Shown: positions 4,393 through 18,561 of the stretch, piece after piece
Layout: each line of letters begins with the position of its first letter
Position numbering within the stretch: position 1 is the stretch's first letter
Virus record (IMG/VR): IMGVR_UViG_2695420763_000003
Length of the DNA: 19,770 nucleotides
From: a virus
Lineage: Duplodnaviria; Heunggongvirae; Uroviricota; Caudoviricetes
Direction: 5' to 3' (one strand)
Notes under the pieces: model-generated
Database searches by the model: none
Told to the model about the DNA's origin: nothing
The model's input: only the letters and a program-made list of their open reading frames with translations
Program-made: the position numbers and the translations under genes

Positions 4393-4598
4393 TATTCACC
4401 TCTCGCAGCCTTACGCTTATCTTCTTTAATCTTGAAATAAAGATTTGTCAGATACGTCAGCAGGCCAAACAGCAGACTTCCCAGCACACCTATTGCCACC
4501 CACTGGGACGGAGAGACTTTGTCCAGCAGCTGCAGTAACCAGTATCCCGTCCCCACCGCTGACGTGGTGTATGACACACCTGTTGTGATTTTTTCCAT
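4392..4598 (-). CDS. S: Pinholin (S21-type holin)
   Basis: 68-aa [68 protein letters not shown] resembles phage 21 pinholin S21. Its stop overlaps the R start. Confidence 0.85.
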
Positions 4599-4640
4599 CT
4601 GATGTATGTCTCCGTCACCGCCGACAGAAAATGAAAGTAA

Positions 4641-4679
4641 AGAAAAACAAAAAAGCCGCCAGTGTCACCCACTGACGGC
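4641..4679 (-). terminator. Intrinsic terminator about 45 nt upstream of the S start, in the late-transcript direction
   Basis: Minus-strand RNA GCCGUCAGUG-GGUGA-CACUGGCGGC forms a 10-bp stem (one G-U pair) followed by UUUUUUGUUUUUC. Confidence 0.5.
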
Positions 4680-4853
4680 CAACGCCGGGAGCCGTGATTA
4701 TGGCATTCAGGCTCTGCTAAAAATGCCAGATAACATTCCGGCCTCCCCTGATTCAGGTTATAAATGACACAATATCTTGACAACATCCGTCACTGTCTGT
4801 CAGAAAATGTACTGCCATATAGAAGCAACATGTGAAGTACATCTATCCTTTTG

Positions 4854-4896
4854 AGCCAGCACCTCTCCACCGAAAGTCAGTGCTGGCTGTTTTTTT
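4854..4896 (+). terminator. Plus-strand intrinsic terminator (unit A)
   Basis: 9-bp stem AGCCAGCAC (4854-4862) / GUGCUGGCU (4880-4888), 17-nt loop, then GTTTTTTT. Confidence 0.5.
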
Positions 4897-5003
4897 CCTT
4901 AATAAGGCATCTGTAACTGAAACAATCCGCATATTGATAATATATTGACAGGCATCATTGCTGTCTGTGAAAAATAAGTCTCTACAAACATATAAGGCCT
5001 TTT

Positions 5004-5045
5004 AGCCAGCGTCTTCTTTTTCAGGTCAGTCGCTGGCTTTTTTTA
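5004..5045 (+). terminator. Plus-strand intrinsic terminator (unit B)
   Basis: 8-bp stem AGCCAGCG (5004-5011) / CGCTGGCT (5031-5038), 19-nt loop, then TTTTTTT. It ends exactly at the stop codon of the convergent esterase gene. Confidence 0.5.
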
Positions 5046-6896
5046 TTATGCTGCCGGTGCATTTATCTCCAGCATCAGACTTTCTATCTCAACGCCATAC
5101 GCTGCATTTTTTGTAACATCCGTCAGCGTCAGCGCATTCAGTCCCAGTGTCAGACTGTCTTTTATAACCTGGAATGCCGGGCCAGCCACTCCATTCAGTT
5201 TCGGAGTAACCGTGGCACTGCCGGCGGTGAACACCAGCTCCAGCGTCTGCCAGTCGTTACCGTAATCGCCGAACTCCCCCAGCTTCGTGTTTCCGGCTTT
5301 CCTGTGATGCATCAGATTCACTCTGCCGTCAGTGGTCTGAGTGAAGTACGACATCAGGAACGGATTACCGGTACCCGTCATCGCCACACCATCAGGAACG
5401 GGAGCATCCGTATACAGATAAATCCCCAGCCCGAACTGATTGTTGGTCAGTGCGCCTGACAGGCGGAACTTACAGGTCAGTCTGCCGCCCTGTGTCAGCA
5501 GGGTAATTGCGTCATCCACCGGATGCGTCAGGGACCAGGTTTTATTGCTCTGCTTGGTGATCTTAAATACACCATCTGACAACTGAATTCCGCCATCCTT
5601 AATGCTCCAGCCCTGCGCAGCAGCCTCTCCGGCTGCCGGCAGCAGGGAGATTGTGCGAACGGACGTATCTGCAGACGGACCCGATGGCGTGTTGCCGCCG
5701 GGCGAGGGTTTGATTTCCGGTGCCTTACCACTGATGAAGGCTGAGGTGCGCCCGGCTGCGTTCAGAATAGCGGTTGCCAGACGATCCGGAATAATGCTCC
5801 TGCGCGCCCATGAACTGAAATGTGTCGGGCGGTTTGATGATACCTGGTTTCCATTCGTTCTCGATGCCGCACCGTAATATCCTGATGCCGGAATATCCGG
5901 ATCTTCTGCCGGCGCGTTAGTGGCGGTATTGACGCCGTTACCGTCTGTCATGAAGGGCACAAAATAAACGCCCTCACTCTCCCTGTTTTTGTACGCCCCG
6001 TAAATGGTGTTGTACTGGGTGCCGTAGGTATTTTTCCAGTAATACGTCGTGTCACCACAAATCCACGGCACATCTGCAGCACTGCCACCATGGCACTGCG
6101 CGTTAAACACGGAGAGGTCAGCACGAAACTGTGTCAGCATGGCTGTAAACAGCGCAGGTTGCTGTGCGTGGGTGGCGGCGCTCATGTCAAACTCTCCCTG
6201 CATCCAGCACACCGCCAGCAACACATTTTTCGGGTTCTTCTGTAATGCAGCTTTGGTGCGCGCAATCAGGTCCTGATATAACGGTTTACCCACACCCCAG
6301 CGCGCCGAATCCTGGCTGGCCCCCGTGTCCGCACTGAATGTCCCCTCCGCGCCCTGGGTAAATGCCGAACCACCACGACAGCATGGTACCAGCAGGATCC
6401 CCGCGTTATTCGGGATATACGGGAGCAGTTTTTTGGCAATATGTAAACCCTGGCCGACACAGCCGTACTGCCCTTTGCTCAGGTCTGCCTTCGGATGATT
6501 CAGCGTACTCATATCCTGCACATCATGCAGGCAGTGGTCGGCCGGAATAATATCGTTATATCTGCAGGCAGCCCCACCCGGCGTCACTGTACTGCGGCGC
6601 GCCAGCTGTTTAATGCGCGGATCCGGAGCATCGTATGAATCCGGCAGCGGAAGCCCTTCACCGTAAGCCATGGCATTGGATTGCCCGGCCAGTACGATGA
6701 CGTAGTACCAATCCGGCTCAGTTGCACCACTGACCACCACATCACCTTCTGCTGTAATCGCCTGCATCAGGGTATAAGGGGTTATGGCCACCGGACTACC
6801 AAACGGCTGCCAGCCCTCTTTCAGTTTGTGTGTCAGCTTTTCCGCAAGGTCTGACGGCGACGCCGCCCTGACAACATCATAATGTTTAAATGTCAT
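5046..6896 (-). CDS. nanS-p: Prophage sialate O-acetylesterase, NanS-p type (DUF1737 N-domain + SGNH/SASA esterase + C-terminal domain)
   Basis: 616-aa ORF. The N-terminus MTFKHYDVVRAASPSDLAEKLTHKLKEGWQPFGSPV is DUF1737-like. VIVLAGQSNAMAYGEG carries the GQSN motif of SGNH/SASA esterases. The C-terminal ~200 aa are Gly/Thr-rich and beta-rich. Position between Q and S matches nanS-p genes of Stx and related prophages. Confidence 0.8.
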   Translation of the reverse strand: MTFKHYDVVRAASPSDLAEKLTHKLKEGWQPFGSPVAITPYTLMQAITAEGDVVVSGATEPDWYYVIVLAGQSNAMAYGEGLPLPDSYDAPDPRIKQLARRSTVTPGGAACRYNDIIPADHCLHDVQDMSTLNHPKADLSKGQYGCVGQGLHIAKKLLPYIPNNAGILLVPCCRGGSAFTQGAEGTFSADTGASQDSARWGVGKPLYQDLIARTKAALQKNPKNVLLAVCWMQGEFDMSAATHAQQPALFTAMLTQFRADLSVFNAQCHGGSAADVPWICGDTTYYWKNTYGTQYNTIYGAYKNRESEGVYFVPFMTDGNGVNTATNAPAEDPDIPASGYYGAASRTNGNQVSSNRPTHFSSWARRSIIPDRLATAILNAAGRTSAFISGKAPEIKPSPGGNTPSGPSADTSVRTISLLPAAGEAAAQGWSIKDGGIQLSDGVFKITKQSNKTWSLTHPVDDAITLLTQGGRLTCKFRLSGALTNNQFGLGIYLYTDAPVPDGVAMTGTGNPFLMSYFTQTTDGRVNLMHHRKAGNTKLGEFGDYGNDWQTLELVFTAGSATVTPKLNGVAGPAFQVIKDSLTLGLNALTLTDVTKNAAYGVEIESLMLEINAPAA

Positions 6897-6939
6897 TATT
6901 CCTCCCGGCCGGGATAGTGTATTAAATCAGATATGGAGT

Positions 6940-6984
6940 GGGCTGTAGTCCGGAAGCCTGAATGACACACGGGGACTACAGCCC
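6940..6984. repeat. Perfect 12-bp inverted repeat (stem-loop) in the 5' leader of the esterase gene
   Basis: GGGCTGTAGTCC (6940-6951) and GGACTACAGCCC (6973-6984) separated by 21 nt, about 45 nt upstream of the ATG at 6896. No adjacent T-run. Confidence 0.6.
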
Positions 6985-7079
6985 AAGAAATGAAGAAGGC
7001 CACGCAGTTGCGCAGCCTGATAAACCCTGGTTAAAATCCACACGATAACAACACAACAATATCAGTATCTCATGCTATT

Positions 7080-7105
7080 GCCCGAACCCATTCGGGCATT
7101 TTTTA
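7080..7105 (+). terminator. Plus-strand intrinsic terminator
   Basis: GCCCGAA-CCCA-TTCGGGC (7-bp stem) followed by ATTTTTT. Confidence 0.45.
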
Positions 7106-7110
7106 CCCAT

Positions 7111-7141
7111 AAAAAATGCCCCTCCGGAGAGGGGCATTTTT
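7111..7141. terminator. Bidirectional intrinsic terminator
   Basis: AAAAAA-TGCCCCTC-CGGA-GAGGGGCA-TTTTT: 8-bp GC-rich stem with an A-run on one side and a T-run on the other. Confidence 0.55.
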
Positions 7142-7338
7142 GCATGCACATTCTTTTTCTTGCATGGTGCCGGGTGCCTCCCGGTGAATTCAGTATCAGC
7201 ACCTGAATCCGCGATTATCACATATACCTACTTGCTGATTGCCCCTCCGCACAGGGGGATTCACCATGCAGTAGTATTTTTAATAAACAGCAAATAAAAA
7301 AATCAAGCATTATGCAGGCTGTTTCTTTTTATCACCGG

Positions 7339-7470
7339 CTACAGCAATACCACAATGCCGCAGACCAGCACCCCATCCGCCAGCACCGACATGATTCTGC
7401 TGGTGAAATCCACCATCACCACCAGAAACAGCAGGAGTGCAGCCACAGCCAGGCGCAGTTTTACCGTCAC
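7339..7470 (-). CDS. Putative 43-aa hydrophobic small protein, start overlapping the stop of the TerB-like frame
   Basis: GTG at 7470..7468 overlaps TGA at 7469..7467 (GTGA). Translation is VTVKLRLAVAALLLFLVVMVDFTSRIMSVLADGVLVCGIVVLL, a single predicted TM helix. Below the ORF-track length cutoff. Expression is unproven. Confidence 0.3.
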   Translation of the reverse strand: MTVKLRLAVAALLLFLVVMVDFTSRIMSVLADGVLVCGIVVLL

Positions 7471-7960
7471 AGGTGATTCTCCAGACGAAGACCCAGAACA
7501 CCGGCAATCTCTTCCAGCACCTTGCGCTCTTCCGGCTCAATTTCGCCGTCTGCCTCCGCAATGGCCACCGCCACATCCAGCACATCTTCCGCTTCACGCG
7601 TATCGTGTTTCACATCCTCGATCTCACGTAACGCCGCACGACGACCAATTTTAAAGTTCGTATCCAGCTGACCGATAATGGTTGCGCTAATCGCATTAAT
7701 TTCTGACGTAAACGCGGACAGCGCAGGCTGATTACGCAGTACCTGTTCGATCTTCGCTTTCTAGGAAGCCTCACATTCACCATCTGCACAGGCCACCAGG
7801 TAGGCAGCATTAATAACCGCCTGTGCCAGATCGCGTTTCTCAAACTTTCCTTTTTCCGGTTAACGTGACACACCAATAACTCTTGTCGAAAAAGCCAGCA
7901 AGCTGAAAGACCGGTATTCACAACCACCAGCGCGTTTACTGTACTGGCGTGATTTCAGTC
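7467..7960 (-). pseudogene. Degraded TerB-family (tellurite-resistance-like) gene
   Basis: Minus-strand segments translate to ...AGFFDK..., ...PEKGKFEKRDLAQAVINAAYLVACADGECEAS, then in-frame TAG (7761-7763), then KAKIEQVLRNQPALSAFTSEINAISATIIGQLDTNFKIGRRAALREIEDVKHDTREAEDVLDVAVAIAEADGEIEPEERKVLEEIAGVLGLRLENHL*. These segments show TerB-like ADG and EEK motifs. They are broken by an in-frame TAA (7860-7862), the TAG, and at least one frameshift near the N-terminus. No Met-initiated intact ORF remains. Confidence 0.5.
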
Positions 7961-7990
7961 ATAAAAAAACCCGCCTGGCGACGGGTGTAA
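7961..7990 (-). terminator. tR'-like intrinsic terminator of the short pR' leader RNA
   Basis: Minus-strand RNA ACCCG-UCGCCAGG-CGGGU followed by UUUUUUUAU, about 40-60 nt downstream of the predicted pR' start. Confidence 0.6.
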
Positions 7991-8033
7991 AAAATCTTCT
8001 AACGTCAGGCATAAAACGCCCATCGTTAGGGCA

Positions 8034-8061
8034 AATTTACCACAGATTCGGGAAAAATCAA
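8034..8061 (-). promoter_or_regulatory. Late promoter pR' with adjacent qut-like region
   Basis: Minus-strand TTGATT (-35, 8061..8056), 16-nt spacer, TAAATT (-10, 8039..8034). The segment GGTAAATTTGCCCTAACGATGGG closely matches the lambda pR' -10/start region GGTAAATTTGACTCAACGATGGG as recalled. It lies directly downstream of Q. Confidence 0.65.
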
Positions 8062-8066
8062 CAAAG

Positions 8067-8888
8067 CTATCTGGTCACCTTTTTCAGTTGTTGTTCTGCC
8101 CATGCTTCTTCAATATCAAACTGCACCACCAGCGTATCGTAAAAACGTTTAACTGTTTTTTTCCATGTATCAAGAGATATGGCATCGGTTACATTACATA
8201 TGGCATTAAATGCCTCCGTTGAAGGTAATCTTTCATAGCCACGACCACCACAACGCTGGCAGTCTCTGATAACAGGCATACCACGTTTTACCGACTCTTC
8301 ACGATGAATGGCAACACCGCGCCCACGACAATCTTTACAGGCAGTGGATACCTCTCCCTTCCCTCCACACTCCGGACAGGCAACTTTTACCACCTCCCTG
8401 ACTTTTTTCCATTCCTCCCAGTAAGACGGATACACGCCTTTTGTGCACTTTGCCCACACTGGCGGCTTACCATCCGGATACTGGATCTTGTTTGTAAAAA
8501 CCTCGCTTTCAATAAATTTTTTTCCGTGACAACAGGGGCACTGTTTTTTGCTCGCCGCGCTACGGGCATAATCTTCAAACGCATACGAAGCCATAATACG
8601 CATCACTGCCGGTTTTATTTCTGCCGGGAGTTTTCTTAACGCCGCCACGCGATCACACCGACTGAGTGCATATTCTGTCAGCAATTCTGTTGCCCGCTCT
8701 CTGTCATTCATACTAATGCCCATTTTCCCAAGGAACGCAGAAAACCCCATCTCAGCCCAATTCTGTGTCATGCCCTGCGCGGCCATCACATCAGTGATAC
8801 TCAGCGTATCTTTCGACGTTGAGGCCGATGCATCAGTCAGGCCGGGGGATTTTGGGGAGTAGTATTTCGGTAAATCTTCCAGTTTCAT
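8067..8888 (-). CDS. Q: Late-gene antiterminator Q (Qin quuQ-like, 273 aa)
   Basis: Sits between rusA and pR'. The N-terminus MKLEDLPKYYSPKSP... resembles Qin-type Q as recalled. Contains four CxxCxGxG-like motifs (CPCCHGKK, CPECGGKG, CKDCRGRG, CQRCGGRG). Start overlaps the rusA stop (ATGA). Confidence 0.8.
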   Translation of the reverse strand: MKLEDLPKYYSPKSPGLTDASASTSKDTLSITDVMAAQGMTQNWAEMGFSAFLGKMGISMNDRERATELLTEYALSRCDRVAALRKLPAEIKPAVMRIMASYAFEDYARSAASKKQCPCCHGKKFIESEVFTNKIQYPDGKPPVWAKCTKGVYPSYWEEWKKVREVVKVACPECGGKGEVSTACKDCRGRGVAIHREESVKRGMPVIRDCQRCGGRGYERLPSTEAFNAICNVTDAISLDTWKKTVKRFYDTLVVQFDIEEAWAEQQLKKVTR

Positions 8889-9259
8889 TTTTTGACCTGC
8901 CCTTCAAGCATTATGGGGTAAATTTTCACCCCCAGACGTCCACCAGATACTGGCTGAGCACGAACGATATTGATTTCATCAAACTGCTCATCGTCCATTA
9001 GCAACCCCGCATGCGTCAGCGCATCCAGCGGCGCTTTCAGAATATTGTCCAGGTCACGGCGGCGCTTATCCGGTGGCTCGGCAATAATCTTTATCGCCAG
9101 CCTTCCGGACAGGCTTAATTTCAGCCGCTGCTGGCGAACAATAAGCGCCACAGCCCGGCGATAACGCTCACCGGCTTTTGATACAAAATATGTGCTGCCA
9201 CGACGTCGCCAGTAGGTGTTCACCGTCGGCGGGTAAAGCAAAACAAACTCTATACGCAT
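8885..9259 (-). CDS. rusA: Holliday-junction resolvase RusA
   Basis: 124-aa ORF with RusA family motifs (...PPDKRRRDLDNILKAPLDALTHAGLLMDDEQ...). AGAGG RBS upstream. Confidence 0.9.
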   Translation of the reverse strand: MRIEFVLLYPPTVNTYWRRRGSTYFVSKAGERYRRAVALIVRQQRLKLSLSGRLAIKIIAEPPDKRRRDLDNILKAPLDALTHAGLLMDDEQFDEINIVRAQPVSGGRLGVKIYPIMLEGQVKK

Positions 9260-9271
9260 CAGTAACCTCTT

Positions 9272-10318
9272 TTACCCGAGCACGCCGGTTGCAAAGGCGT
9301 GATCAAGAAAACGAAAAATTAAATCAACCTGGGAACCATGCTTTTCTTCAAATGCCAGCGGATCAGCATGAAGTTCGTTGTGATGCTCCCGACACAACGG
9401 TAGCGTGAAAATATCGTGGGCTTTTGTCCCTATTCCGCCCTGACCATGACCAATCAGGTGATGGGGATCGTCGGCTGGCTTACCACAACACGCACACGGC
9501 TGTGTCTTTACCCAGCGTGTGTATTTCTCATTTACCCAGCGGCGACGTTTAGGTCGCTTCATTAAAGATTCCGGAGACTCCGGATCAACAGCAATGCTGA
9601 CCACCGTCTTTTCCTGTGGCGGGTTTTGCTGGTGGGCGTGAGGCAGCGGCGCAAGATTTTTTGTGCGCTGCTTCAGTATGCTGGTGGCGGTCGGTTCTCC
9701 CGGTATGATGTCGCTTTCGCGGTACACCGGGCGGATTTTTTCCGCACGTAATCCCAGCGAACGACGCAATACTGCCTCCGGTAGCGCGTCCGCCACCTGA
9801 TTGCAGACAGCCCACCAGGATAATTCAGCCAGCGATAATTCCCGCTCCTGCGTGCCATTCATTGCATGGCGTATGACGTCAATCATCCATGCTGACAGGT
9901 TTTGGTGAGCAAGTTGCCCGAGTGATTCGGAAGTCTGGTCACGCAGCTGGTTGTCGCAGTGCCAGCACAACACCATCGCGCCGGTACCGTAACGATGTAT
10001 GACGGTTTCACTGTGATGGTAGTCACCATGAGGCCACTGGCAGGATTTGACATGACGCAGGAGCCAGTCAGACAGTGCACCAGCACCGCCTGCAGCGCGA
10101 ATCACCCGTTCGTTTCTGAAAAATGGCAGTAATGATTTATCTTCCGCCAGCGGCTGGCGAACGGCAGGAACGACCCCGGACGACAGATTACGCATGCTTT
10201 TCGGTTCAGGCTCCACCAGCACTCGAGGGTTATGAAATACCTGCATGGATTCACGGCCCGGCTTAACGATCACCAGCCCGAGTTCCGGTACCAGAACAGG
10301 TCGAAGTAATACCCGCAC
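9272..10318 (-). CDS. ydfU: DUF968-family protein with C-terminal HNH-like Cys/His motif (Qin YdfU-like)
   Basis: 348-aa MRVLLRPVLVPELGLVIVKPGRES... ending ...CACCGKPADDPHHLIGHGQGG...CREHHNELH. Matches my recollection of Qin YdfU. GTG start. Confidence 0.75.
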   Translation of the reverse strand: MRVLLRPVLVPELGLVIVKPGRESMQVFHNPRVLVEPEPKSMRNLSSGVVPAVRQPLAEDKSLLPFFRNERVIRAAGGAGALSDWLLRHVKSCQWPHGDYHHSETVIHRYGTGAMVLCWHCDNQLRDQTSESLGQLAHQNLSAWMIDVIRHAMNGTQERELSLAELSWWAVCNQVADALPEAVLRRSLGLRAEKIRPVYRESDIIPGEPTATSILKQRTKNLAPLPHAHQQNPPQEKTVVSIAVDPESPESLMKRPKRRRWVNEKYTRWVKTQPCACCGKPADDPHHLIGHGQGGIGTKAHDIFTLPLCREHHNELHADPLAFEEKHGSQVDLIFRFLDHAFATGVLG

Positions 10319-10319
10319 G

Positions 10320-10598
10320 TTACCTCCAGATGCGTTGCTGGAATGTGCGGGACGGACGCGGTGGGCGTTCGGAGTAAGGAAGCCTGACGGAGATTATCCA
10401 GTGACGATAATCGAGGCTGAGGGCTTTCTTAATCTCGTATCCGTGTCTGCGGTAGCACTGAATTAGCCACTCGGCCTGTTCTTCAGTGCATGGGGGATGC
10501 TGGAACCAGTCAGATTTGAAAGTGCGGGAACGCCGCCCGTGCCTGCTGGCAAAGACGGCAGAATCATCAGAATTGTATAATTTGGTATCGTGCGCCAT
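10320..10598 (-). CDS. rem: Small hypothetical protein in the position of Qin rem
   Basis: Track ORF 10320..10679 starts at a TTG that overlaps the hok terminator. I prefer the internal ATG at 10598 (MAHDTKLYNSDDSAVF..., 92 aa). Assignment to rem is by synteny (ydfU-rem-hokD) only. Confidence 0.35.
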   Translation of the reverse strand: MAHDTKLYNSDDSAVFASRHGRRSRTFKSDWFQHPPCTEEQAEWLIQCYRRHGYEIKKALSLDYRHWIISVRLPYSERPPRPSRTFQQRIWR

Positions 10599-10667
10599 CG
10601 GTTGTCTCTGCTGGCGCAGCAGGTGCCAGTTGTTCAGGCTGGCGTGCGAATTGTAAACCAGAATGCC

Positions 10668-10698
10668 AGGAAAAAACAAAACCCGCCGAAGCGGGTTA
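10668..10698 (-). terminator. Intrinsic terminator of the hok mRNA
   Basis: Minus-strand RNA AACCCGC-UUCG-GCGGGUU followed by UUGUUUUUUCC. Preceded by a 9-bp hairpin GGCGAGGGA-GAAA-UCCCUCGCC in the 3' UTR (about 10734-10755). Confidence 0.5.
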
Positions 10699-10765
10699 AG
10701 TGCGGGTGCGTTGAGGATGCCTGATTCATCAGAGGTGGCGAGGGATTTCTCCCTCGCCGGGTCTC

Positions 10766-10921
10766 TTACTCCTCAGGTTCGTAAGCTGTGAAGACAGCGA
10801 CCTCCGTCTGGCCGGTTCGGATTCGTACCTCGCAGAGGTCTTTCCTCGTTACCAGTGCCGTCACTATGACGGTTAAACAGATGACGATCAGGGCGATTAA
10901 CATCGCCTTTTGCTGCTTCAT
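10766..10921 (-). CDS. hokD: Type I toxin Hok (HokD/RelF-like, 51 aa)
   Basis: MKQQKAMLIALIVICLTVIVTALVTRKDLCEVRIRTGQTEVAVFTAYEPEE with AAGGAG RBS. The track ORF 10766..10978 adds an in-frame 19-codon upstream extension (mok-like). The upstream leader carries a 9-bp inverted repeat (11043-11051 / 11070-11078). Confidence 0.9.
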   Translation of the reverse strand: MKQQKAMLIALIVICLTVIVTALVTRKDLCEVRIRTGQTEVAVFTAYEPEE

Positions 10922-11166
10922 AGCCTGCTTCTCCTTGCCTTTCGGCGCGTAAGAGGCTAACCTACATGTGTCTAGCATGAAATTGGCCTCAGATTAATGT
11001 TAGGCGTCTTGCAGGACGCGTAATGTTAACTGGGGCTTTTCTCTGTCTGCCTTACGGTGGCATGCCCGAGGCAGACAGCCTCAAGCGCCCGCAGCAATTC
11101 TACTTAACTCTCGCTTTACCGCAAACCGTTTTTACCCGATATGGGAATTCCCATATCGTAATGAAT

Positions 11167-18507: not shown

Positions 18508-18561
18508 TTTTCTGGTGACTTTTGGCGGTATCAGTTCTACTCCGTGACTGCTCTGCCGCCC
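18508..18561 (+). ncRNA. dicF: DicF small RNA (ftsZ-targeting sRNA processed from the dicB operon transcript)
   Basis: TTTCTGGTGACTTTTGGCGGTATCAGTTCTACTCCGTGACTGCTCTGCCGCCC followed by TTTTT matches the 53-nt K-12 DicF sequence as I recall it, with about 3 substitutions. It ends in a GGCGG...GCCGCC terminator hairpin. Coordinates are from my own line indexing and were not re-verified to the base. Confidence 0.75.

Follow-up and report, generated by a model that had tools for sequence, protein, structure and literature searches.

The window analysed here is a 19,770-nt stretch of DNA from a tailed virus (Caudoviricetes; IMG/VR record IMGVR_UViG_2695420763_000003), and all positions refer to the whole window. 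We examined a cluster of hairpins and terminators at 6940-7300, located between a TerB-like pseudogene and an esterase gene. With a probability of roughly 0.92, the cluster is the known convergent small RNA (sRNA) dyad of lambda-like E. coli prophages, which lies upstream of the lysis genes. An earlier reading, made from the sequence alone, had proposed an sRNA or riboregulator for this region; what the region holds is a convergent pair of curated sRNA genes, plus-strand AgvB and a minus-strand gene for an STnc100-family RNA. The module is thus a rediscovery of a described system, already known and ordinary. Covariation in a stem-loop of the esterase leader, and the overlap of a terminator-like hairpin (T2) with the predicted AgvB promoter, are minor new observations.

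Identification of the sRNA dyad

Two Rfam matches at curated thresholds, on opposite strands, jointly span 7043-7295. On the plus strand AgvB (RF02702) was recovered with 96.5 bits against a gathering score of 56, over positions 1-62 of the 62-position model (E = 6e-18). On the minus strand STnc100 (RF02076) was recovered with 146.2 bits against a gathering score of 47, over positions 1-206 of 206 (E = 6.5e-33). We assign the cluster to the dyad because both covariance models match over their full length and far above their gathering scores, and because the copies in E. coli Sakai are near-identical and the whole intergenic region aligns with that of prophage Sp10 in the same gene order.

The comparison was made with the AgvB1/AgvB2-EcOnc06 dyads of Sakai prophages Sp10 and Sp17 (PMC4104026; PMC7873438). 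The window AgvB is identical at 62/62 positions to each of AgvB1 (Sp10) and AgvB2 (Sp17), and for the long partner the identity is 97.4% with Sp17 and 95.4% with Sp10. The spacer of the window can be aligned throughout with that of Sp10; a more distant match is the spacer that follows stx2B in Sp5. The Sp10/Sp17 dyads also share with the window the tail-to-tail layout, the T2 hairpin, the hairpin in the esterase leader and the downstream esterase. As in the window, the gene order in Sp10 is Q, a TerB-like gene, a gap with the dyad, esterase ECs_1961 and a holin; in the window Q, the TerB pseudogene and a DUF3927 gene lie on one side of the dyad and esterase, holin and lysozyme on the other. 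Tree et al. 2014 (PMC4104026) and later reviews had already reported such a convergent dyad, set between the cargo genes of the late promoter and the esterase/lysis genes. Dyads between the late promoter and the lysis genes occur in at least eight Sakai prophages, for reasons that are unclear (PMC7873438). The Sakai homologues of both RNAs were validated through Hfq crosslinking and Northern blots (PMC4104026).

The features of the dyad are:
7043..7104, plus strand: AgvB anti-sRNA gene, RNA of ~60 nt (7043-7102)
7008..7037, plus strand: predicted sigma-70 promoter of AgvB, TTGCGC (7008-7013), 18-nt spacer, TAAAAT (7032-7037)
7079..7104, plus strand: Rho-independent terminator of AgvB, 8-bp stem TGCCCGAA/TTCGGGCA, loop CCCA, T6
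7295..7105, minus strand: STnc100-family sRNA gene, homologue of Sakai EcOnc06 (Sp17/Sp10) and EcOnc27/sRNA103 (Sp5)
7162..7269, minus strand: structured core of STnc100, closing helix GCAUGGUG (7269-7262) with CACCAUGC (7169-7162)
Inside the closing helix, minus strand: hairpins CCCCC/GGGGG at 7242-7258, GGAUUCAG/CUGAAUUC, and CCGGG/CCCGG at 7170-7184 (Rfam alignment, RNAalifold)
7112..7141, both strands: STnc100 terminator in bidirectional form, A-run, GCCCCTC/GAGGGGC stem, T-run

AgvB on the plus strand

AgvB (EcOnc01a/b) is a 60-nt RNA that was mapped by 5'-rapid amplification of cDNA ends (RACE) and is destabilised without Hfq (PMC4104026). In the window C7043 is the first base of the RACE-mapped start CGATAAC..., and the RNA counted from C7043 to the fourth T is 60 nt long, the range of the class being 51-60 nt. 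The -10 element of the predicted promoter lies 5 nt from C7043, and both hexamers are invariant among the window, Sakai Sp10 (AgvB1) and Sp5 (AsxR). This promoter was unlisted in a consensus scan; its -35 element matches at 3/6 positions only.

The 5' region contains the GcvB-R1 target mimic CACAACA at 7052-7058. Using the 5' 24 nt of AgvB and the G/U-rich region of K-12 GcvB, we obtained a pairing energy of -19.9 kcal/mol, compared with -13.8 ± 2.8 kcal/mol for shuffled sequences, 7/500 of which were as good. This shuffle test was kept, while duplexfold predictions with whole RNAs (AgvB-GcvB and STnc100-AgvB) were discarded as long, unrealistic duplexes. AgvB antagonises GcvB and relieves DppA repression, as proved with compensatory mutants, and deletion of both AgvB copies lowers the fitness of Sakai in bovine rectal mucus (PMC4104026). 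The sigma-70 promoter of the window would drive a 60-nt AgvB that ends at its own terminator. The RNA would bind Hfq and pair, through its CACAACA segment, with the R1 seed of GcvB, a host sRNA. With GcvB titrated, transporters of peptides and amino acids such as DppA would be derepressed. Titration, Hfq binding and dppA derepression were shown experimentally for the Sakai RNA, and we infer them for the window AgvB from its identical sequence.

The ~42-nt 3' domain, which includes the terminator, is common to the AgvB/AsxR/EcOnc03 class. The short partners EcOnc01a/b (AgvB1/2), EcOnc02 (AsxR) and EcOnc03 were reported to share it and to differ in a 14-18-nt 5' region (PMC4104026). With the Rfam model of AsxR the window AgvB scored 43 bits, below the gathering score of 63. 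The AgvB match and the opposite-strand STnc100 match end 1 nt apart, and their terminators stand tail-to-tail, 4 nt apart. Both sRNAs have the same 3' end, GGGCAUUUUUU. We rejected the idea that the two 3' ends are complementary, as the repeat 7094-7105 / 7110-7121 is this shared ending.

The STnc100-family RNA on the minus strand

A 196-nt minus-strand RNA folds at -70.5 kcal/mol (z -3.4; all fold z-scores are from dinucleotide shuffles). It contains both of the GC-rich hairpins that had been noticed within 7150-7290, CCGGGTGCCTCCCGG at 7170-7184 and CCCCTCCGCACAGGGGG at 7242-7258. RNAalifold analysis of 19 relatives gave a consensus structure of 35 pairs, 6 of them covarying. The two GC-rich hairpins are invariant across these relatives; compensatory changes fall in the closing helix, the middle hairpin and the terminator stem (columns 199-218). 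The 3' end of the RNA is formed by the terminator stem 7141-7112 plus U6. The late strand would yield an Hfq-binding RNA of ~165-195 nt ending at this strong bidirectional terminator. A small open reading frame (ORF) within it (AUG 7267, 23 codons) was judged non-coding; its length and sequence are unconserved in relatives and it lacks a Shine-Dalgarno sequence.

Judged by sequence, the window copy is most likely a homologue of the published EcOnc06, which in Sp17 was noted as having a 'homologue 5' of ECs1961' (PMC4104026). The description of a 'dyad' in a later review agrees with the EcOnc06 mapping (PMC7873438). EcOnc27/sRNA103 overlaps an STnc100 prediction (PMC12711010), and its overexpression raises fimZ and espA transcripts (PMC12711010, PMC7873438). 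Strain EDL933 has 11 transcribed STnc100 copies, one of them confirmed by Northern blot (PMC5331693). Published sizes of STnc100-family RNAs are ~177, 191 and 235/247 nt.

Hairpins and terminators of the cluster

Using the sequence and a repeat finder, we found all the hairpins and terminators of the sequence-only reading, at most 1-2 nt from where it had placed them. Every element folds with a z-score of -3.3 to -5.8 on its relevant strand. The plus-strand terminator placed at 7080-7105 has its stem at 7079-7098 followed by T6 and is AgvB's own terminator; a 64-nt RNA containing it folds at -13.7 kcal/mol (z -3.5). The bidirectional terminator placed at 7111-7141 has perfect 13-bp arms (7112-7124 / 7129-7141) between an A-run and a T-run; its fold energies are -25.0 kcal/mol (z -4.8) for the minus strand and -21.3 kcal/mol (z -4.5) for the plus strand. 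The inverted repeat at 6940-6984 is perfect as described; its length is 13 bp rather than 12, with arms at 6939-6951 / 6973-6985. One further hairpin, T2, had not been listed. It lies on the minus strand, is terminator-like with a 9-bp stem, and folds at -14.9 kcal/mol (z -3.5). By their structure the four elements are classed as follows:
7079..7104, plus strand: AgvB terminator, an intrinsic terminator with a GC-rich stem-loop and then a U tract
7141-7105, minus strand: STnc100 terminator, an intrinsic terminator, with T5 on the plus strand as well
7018-6997, minus strand: T2 hairpin, borderline for an intrinsic terminator, tail UUCUUCAUUU; relatives have U6-U8
6985-6939, minus strand: 13-bp hairpin without a U tract, not an intrinsic terminator

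GC-rich palindromes could also cluster by chance and have no function. Hairpins are generally frequent, and the number of terminator-like sites in the whole window is modestly above that in shuffled sequences (30 vs 20.3 ± 4.9 per 19.8 kb, consensus scan). The same scan placed 3 of the 30 sites inside these 361 nt, where ~0.4 would be expected from shuffles. The fold z-scores and the Rfam E-values speak against chance, and so do conservation of the region in thousands of genomes and the covariation that backs the structures. A chance cluster has practically no probability in our judgement; it was already refuted by the Rfam matches, the identity with Sakai and the covariation of both the leader hairpin and STnc100.

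T2 and the probable late-strand stops

6985..7018, minus strand: T2 terminator-like element, 9-bp stem 7018-6997 with two G.U pairs, then UUCUUCAUUUCUU

The DNA of T2 carries the -35 element of the predicted AgvB promoter. Because of its two G.U pairs the hairpin folds better on the late strand. Across 36 distinct relatives the stem is kept, showing one G-C/G-U change and a double change at no pair; the T2 stem, followed by U7-U8, also recurs in the leaders of other esterase loci that show nothing homologous to the window's AgvB part. A permissive Rfam scan of 4400-8100 gave nothing credible for T2. We believe that T2 most likely does terminate late-strand transcription, its DNA providing in addition the -35 element of the predicted AgvB promoter. 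Read on the late strand, the AgvB terminator is not followed by a U tract. The U tract of T2 itself (6990-6996) reads UUCUUC in the window versus UUUUUUC in Sakai Sp10 and in the commonest variant (39 copies); Sakai and most relatives have U5-U6, and the T-to-C change is the window's.

Successive Q-sensitive stops insulating cargo genes had been offered as the other option for the cluster. Two intrinsic-terminator-like signals do stand in series on the late strand, and this option is compatible with the dyad and probably also true. In a lysogen, the STnc100 terminator and T2, ~90 nt further on, would halt transcription from the cargo genes. Since the esterase and lysis genes lie beyond both terminators, only Q-modified polymerase from PR' should reach the esterase, holin and lysozyme genes; read-through by Q is assumed here from the established behaviour of lambda Q.

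If the hairpins were solely Q-sensitive terminators that insulate the lysis genes, the released RNAs would have no trans-acting function. The serial late-strand signals with lysis genes downstream fit such an arrangement, as does the persistence of a T2-type terminator in leaders lacking homology to the AgvB part, and STnc100/EcOnc06 is without an established function. The plus-strand element, on the other hand, cannot stop the late strand, and in Sakai its regulatory function is proven. Upstream of the terminator, ~60 nt of the STnc100 core hardly vary and its helices covary; this conservation argues for more than a mere terminator. The homologues are, moreover, Hfq-bound and Hfq-stabilised. 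Insulation is a likely additional role of the dyad; as the sole explanation of the cluster we consider it very improbable.

We also consider, as a doubtful extension, that T2 and the 13-bp stem-loop form an undescribed cis-regulatory unit that makes the dyad a sponging switch coupled to lysogeny and lysis. In the lysogen AgvB would be produced, with the esterase and lysis genes silenced by T2 and the STnc100 terminator. Upon induction, Q-modified polymerase would read through, occlude the AgvB promoter and make a perfect antisense of AgvB, and the stem-loop would mark a processing or stabilising site of the esterase-lysis mRNA. If this were true, the two sRNA genes of the dyad would not be independent but parts of one switch that governs the sponging of a host sRNA.

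The stem-loop in the esterase leader

6939..6985, minus strand: stem-loop in the 5' leader of the nanS-p-type esterase gene, 13 bp, 21-nt loop, ending 42 nt before the ATG

The fold energy of this stem-loop is -28.0 kcal/mol for the minus strand (z -5.8; 0/200 shuffles) and -25.2 kcal/mol for the plus strand. We compared 36 distinct variants drawn from viral contigs and Sakai. Pairing is retained in 90% of the cells and changes on both sides occur at 6/13 pairs; the observed count of double-change cells was reached by 0/500 shuffles. When the partner was slid by 1-3 columns as a control, the covariation signal was almost gone (0-1 pairs). The loop varies in sequence and length among lineages, and in most variants G.U pairs are found on the minus strand only. 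Compensatory changes together with G.U pairs confined to the late strand speak for a structure of the late RNA and against a palindrome acting as DNA.

The repeat might instead act as DNA, either in recombination or as a palindrome bound by a protein ahead of the AgvB promoter. It is perfect and palindrome-like and lies 58-104 nt upstream of the AgvB start. In several loci (L176, L163, L164) a recombination junction falls inside the hairpin loop, and mosaic module boundaries occur in the region. Yet the arms vary with pairing kept, at a level (6 double-change pairs) that none of the 500 shuffles equalled, several variants retain their pairing solely by late-strand G.U pairs, which would be A.C mismatches on the other strand and break the DNA symmetry, and the loop is free to vary. 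A DNA-level role is therefore quite improbable, and the data point to a conserved RNA structure in the late transcript. In the three viral contigs named above, homology of the esterase leader ends in the loop; the 5' arm is kept and the 3' arm is replaced by unrelated sequence.

The 13-bp hairpin had no match in the permissive Rfam scan of 4400-8100, and no description of it was found in the literature searched. No described family covers the late-strand leader of ~150 nt that separates AgvB from the esterase start codon. As a guess, the hairpin would most likely protect the mRNA end, or serve in processing or stabilising the esterase-lysis mRNA.

Points that weigh against the dyad assignment

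Several observations count against the assignment or parts of it. Transcription, RNA ends and Hfq binding are carried over to the window from homologues. The 5' end of the STnc100-family RNA has two candidate -10 elements, CATAAT at 7314-7309, which would give ~195 nt, and TAAAAA at 7282-7277, which would give ~165 nt; both have weak -35 elements and neither was listed by the consensus scan. Northern blots in Sakai gave ~177 nt for EcOnc06 (Sp17) and 235/247 nt for the Sp5 homologue EcOnc27 (PMC4104026). The Sp17 STnc100 copy is at NC_002695.2 3486448-3486643, minus strand, and the published EcOnc06 peak at 3486349-3486411 in version-1 coordinates; the peak falls inside this copy only if the offset of ~+140 measured at AgvB1 holds there. 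With its interrupted U tract, T2 may be weak in this prophage. Finally, the insulating role of the terminators and the role of the leader hairpin are only what we infer.

Gene context and the likely site of PR'/tR'

Neighbouring genes were assigned by Pfam and by the Prokaryotic Genome Annotation Pipeline (PGAP); all are on the minus strand:
8888-8067: Q antiterminator, PF03589, 273 aa
7829-7467: TerB/TciA-like cargo gene, a pseudogene (PGAP) with an internal stop
7470-7342: DUF3927 cargo ORF, Pfam PF13064
5046..6896: sialate O-acetylesterase-type gene ('conserved late ORF'), DUF1737 + SASA + DUF6645, PGAP annotation of an identical locus
Downstream of the esterase: P21-type holin, then lysozyme (Pfam)

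Locus L001 is 97.3% identical to the window over 4409-10935 only. We had treated it as collinear with the whole window, which was wrong, and gene identities were taken from Pfam. The TerB/TciA-like pseudogene carries a single in-frame TAG in place of a Glu codon of Sakai ECs_1959 and is otherwise 98% identical.

Sp10 differs from the window in several respects. Its Q is a 184-aa antiterminator, in contrast to the 273-aa PF03589 protein of the window. Its TerB-like gene lacks the stop codon, its T2 lacks the T-to-C change, and its leader hairpin has a 4-nt insertion in the 3' arm that is absent from the window. The tRNA genes ileZ/argO follow Q in Sakai Sp10 and Sp5, whereas a tRNA scan found none in the window.

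A comparison with the tR'-proximal sRNAs of Shiga toxin (Stx) phages had been suggested for the cluster. The RNA of the dyad would then be the constitutive PR' transcript ended at tR', of the lambda 6S / StxS kind. It does lie on the late strand downstream of Q with a strong terminator at its end, and lambda 6S RNA and StxS are likewise late-strand RNAs that end at an intrinsic terminator read through by Q-modified polymerase. Unlike these, the window RNA is not adjacent to Q/PR', and it differs in sequence family and position. Q ends at 8067 and the likely PR'/tR' lies right behind it, at ~8062-7962. The cluster is 670-1100 nt further on, past the TerB-like and DUF3927 ORFs, and its sequences match other curated families in Rfam. 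Kinship with the tR'-proximal RNAs did not hold up, the likely PR'/tR' being at least 670 nt upstream with two cargo ORFs in between, and we regard this origin as extremely improbable.

The window has its own candidate for the lambda 6S/StxS slot at 7962-8062 on the minus strand, directly after the Q stop. A PR'-like promoter (TTGATT-N16-TAAATT) is followed there by a small hairpin at 8033-8017 and a strong terminator at 7986-7969 (stem + T7), which would give a transcript of ~60-80 nt. Between the esterase stop and the holin start (4640-4760, minus strand) we noted an sRNA-like 11-bp terminator at 4680-4654, then TTTTTTGTTTTT, in the position of PasA/PasC (Zhu, Shabalina and Storz 2026 preprint). 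The permissive Rfam scan of 4400-8100 gave no match for this terminator or spacer; besides a weak AsxR cross-match it returned only sub-threshold noise (Phe_leader, STnc370, suhB). Elsewhere in the window are a sok antitoxin RNA (RF01794, 115 bits) at 10916-11090, minus strand, beside a hokD-type gene, and DicF (RF00039, 71.5 bits) at 18510-18561, plus strand.

Related dyads and probable exchange of sRNA cargo

The AsxR-EcOnc27/sRNA103 dyad, 3' of stx2AB in Stx2a phages (Sp5, 933W), occupies the same slot with the same architecture. The anti-sRNA promoter, the ~42-nt 3' domain, the core helices of STnc100, T2 and the leader hairpin are conserved between it and the window. By contrast, the STnc100 copies are only ~69% identical, the AsxR model is sub-threshold in the window, and the upstream cargo is stx2AB there and TerB/DUF3927 here.

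PasD of enteropathogenic E. coli E2348/69 (PMC8550237) was reported as a structural relative of STnc100 that is not recoverable from STnc100 by BLAST and has a different seed (Zhu, Shabalina and Storz 2026 preprint). PasD1/PasD2 lie upstream of a phage sialate esterase with Q nearby, as in the window, and here the likeness is one of synteny alone. PasA/PasC lie between esterase and holin; the 'conserved genes' described for them, RusA and TerB, are both present in the window.

Among 20 related loci, 15 have STnc100 upstream of the esterase, three of these as tandem double copies (L048:1222-1879, L083:1222-1879 and L075:1601-2278). An adjoining AgvB-class RNA on the antisense strand is found in 7 of the 15. 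Three of the 20 loci have an AgvB of identical score and four an AgvB-class RNA at threshold with a different 5' region. In L015:2279-2400 (also L027, L075 and relatives) a TTGCGC-N18-TATTAT promoter occupies the same slot, antisense to the late strand, and an unrelated RNA of ~70 nt with its own terminator, GCCCGCGTCTCCCTGCGCGGGC + T7, replaces AgvB. This suggests that sRNA cargo can be swapped behind a fixed promoter. From the variation among loci, the slot behaves as a conserved frame of promoter and terminator with exchangeable sRNA cargo, which matches the description of these RNAs as 'related but not identical' by Tree et al. (PMC4104026).

The 501 nt around the cluster matched 2845/5426 complete E. 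coli genomes (in 717 the match covered at least 80% of the 501 nt) and 203 phage records, most of them from Stx-converting phages. We found full-length AgvB in 619/5426 complete E. coli genomes with a median of two copies, and its identity is at least 99% in all but one of 621 records. The matching E. coli records include dog, pig, chicken and wildlife isolates. Under the AgvB matches listed there is no annotated feature, and both AgvB and its partner lack annotation in the RefSeq records inspected. A search of genome contigs with the esterase N-terminus gave only 12 loci; most were nanS-like genes of the chromosome that lack the phage leader.

Significance

A reader with only the sequence had flagged an sRNA locus correctly, and the gap in annotation means that genome scans will keep 'rediscovering' AgvB and its partner. 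Why such sRNAs form convergent dyads before lysis genes is an open question for the field (PMC7873438), and the overlap of T2 with the predicted promoter together with the leader stem-loop offers concrete handles on it. Decoys of the AgvB type reprogramme a core host regulon, that of GcvB, which controls amino-acid and peptide uptake, and in Sakai they bring a measurable gain in fitness in the animal reservoir.

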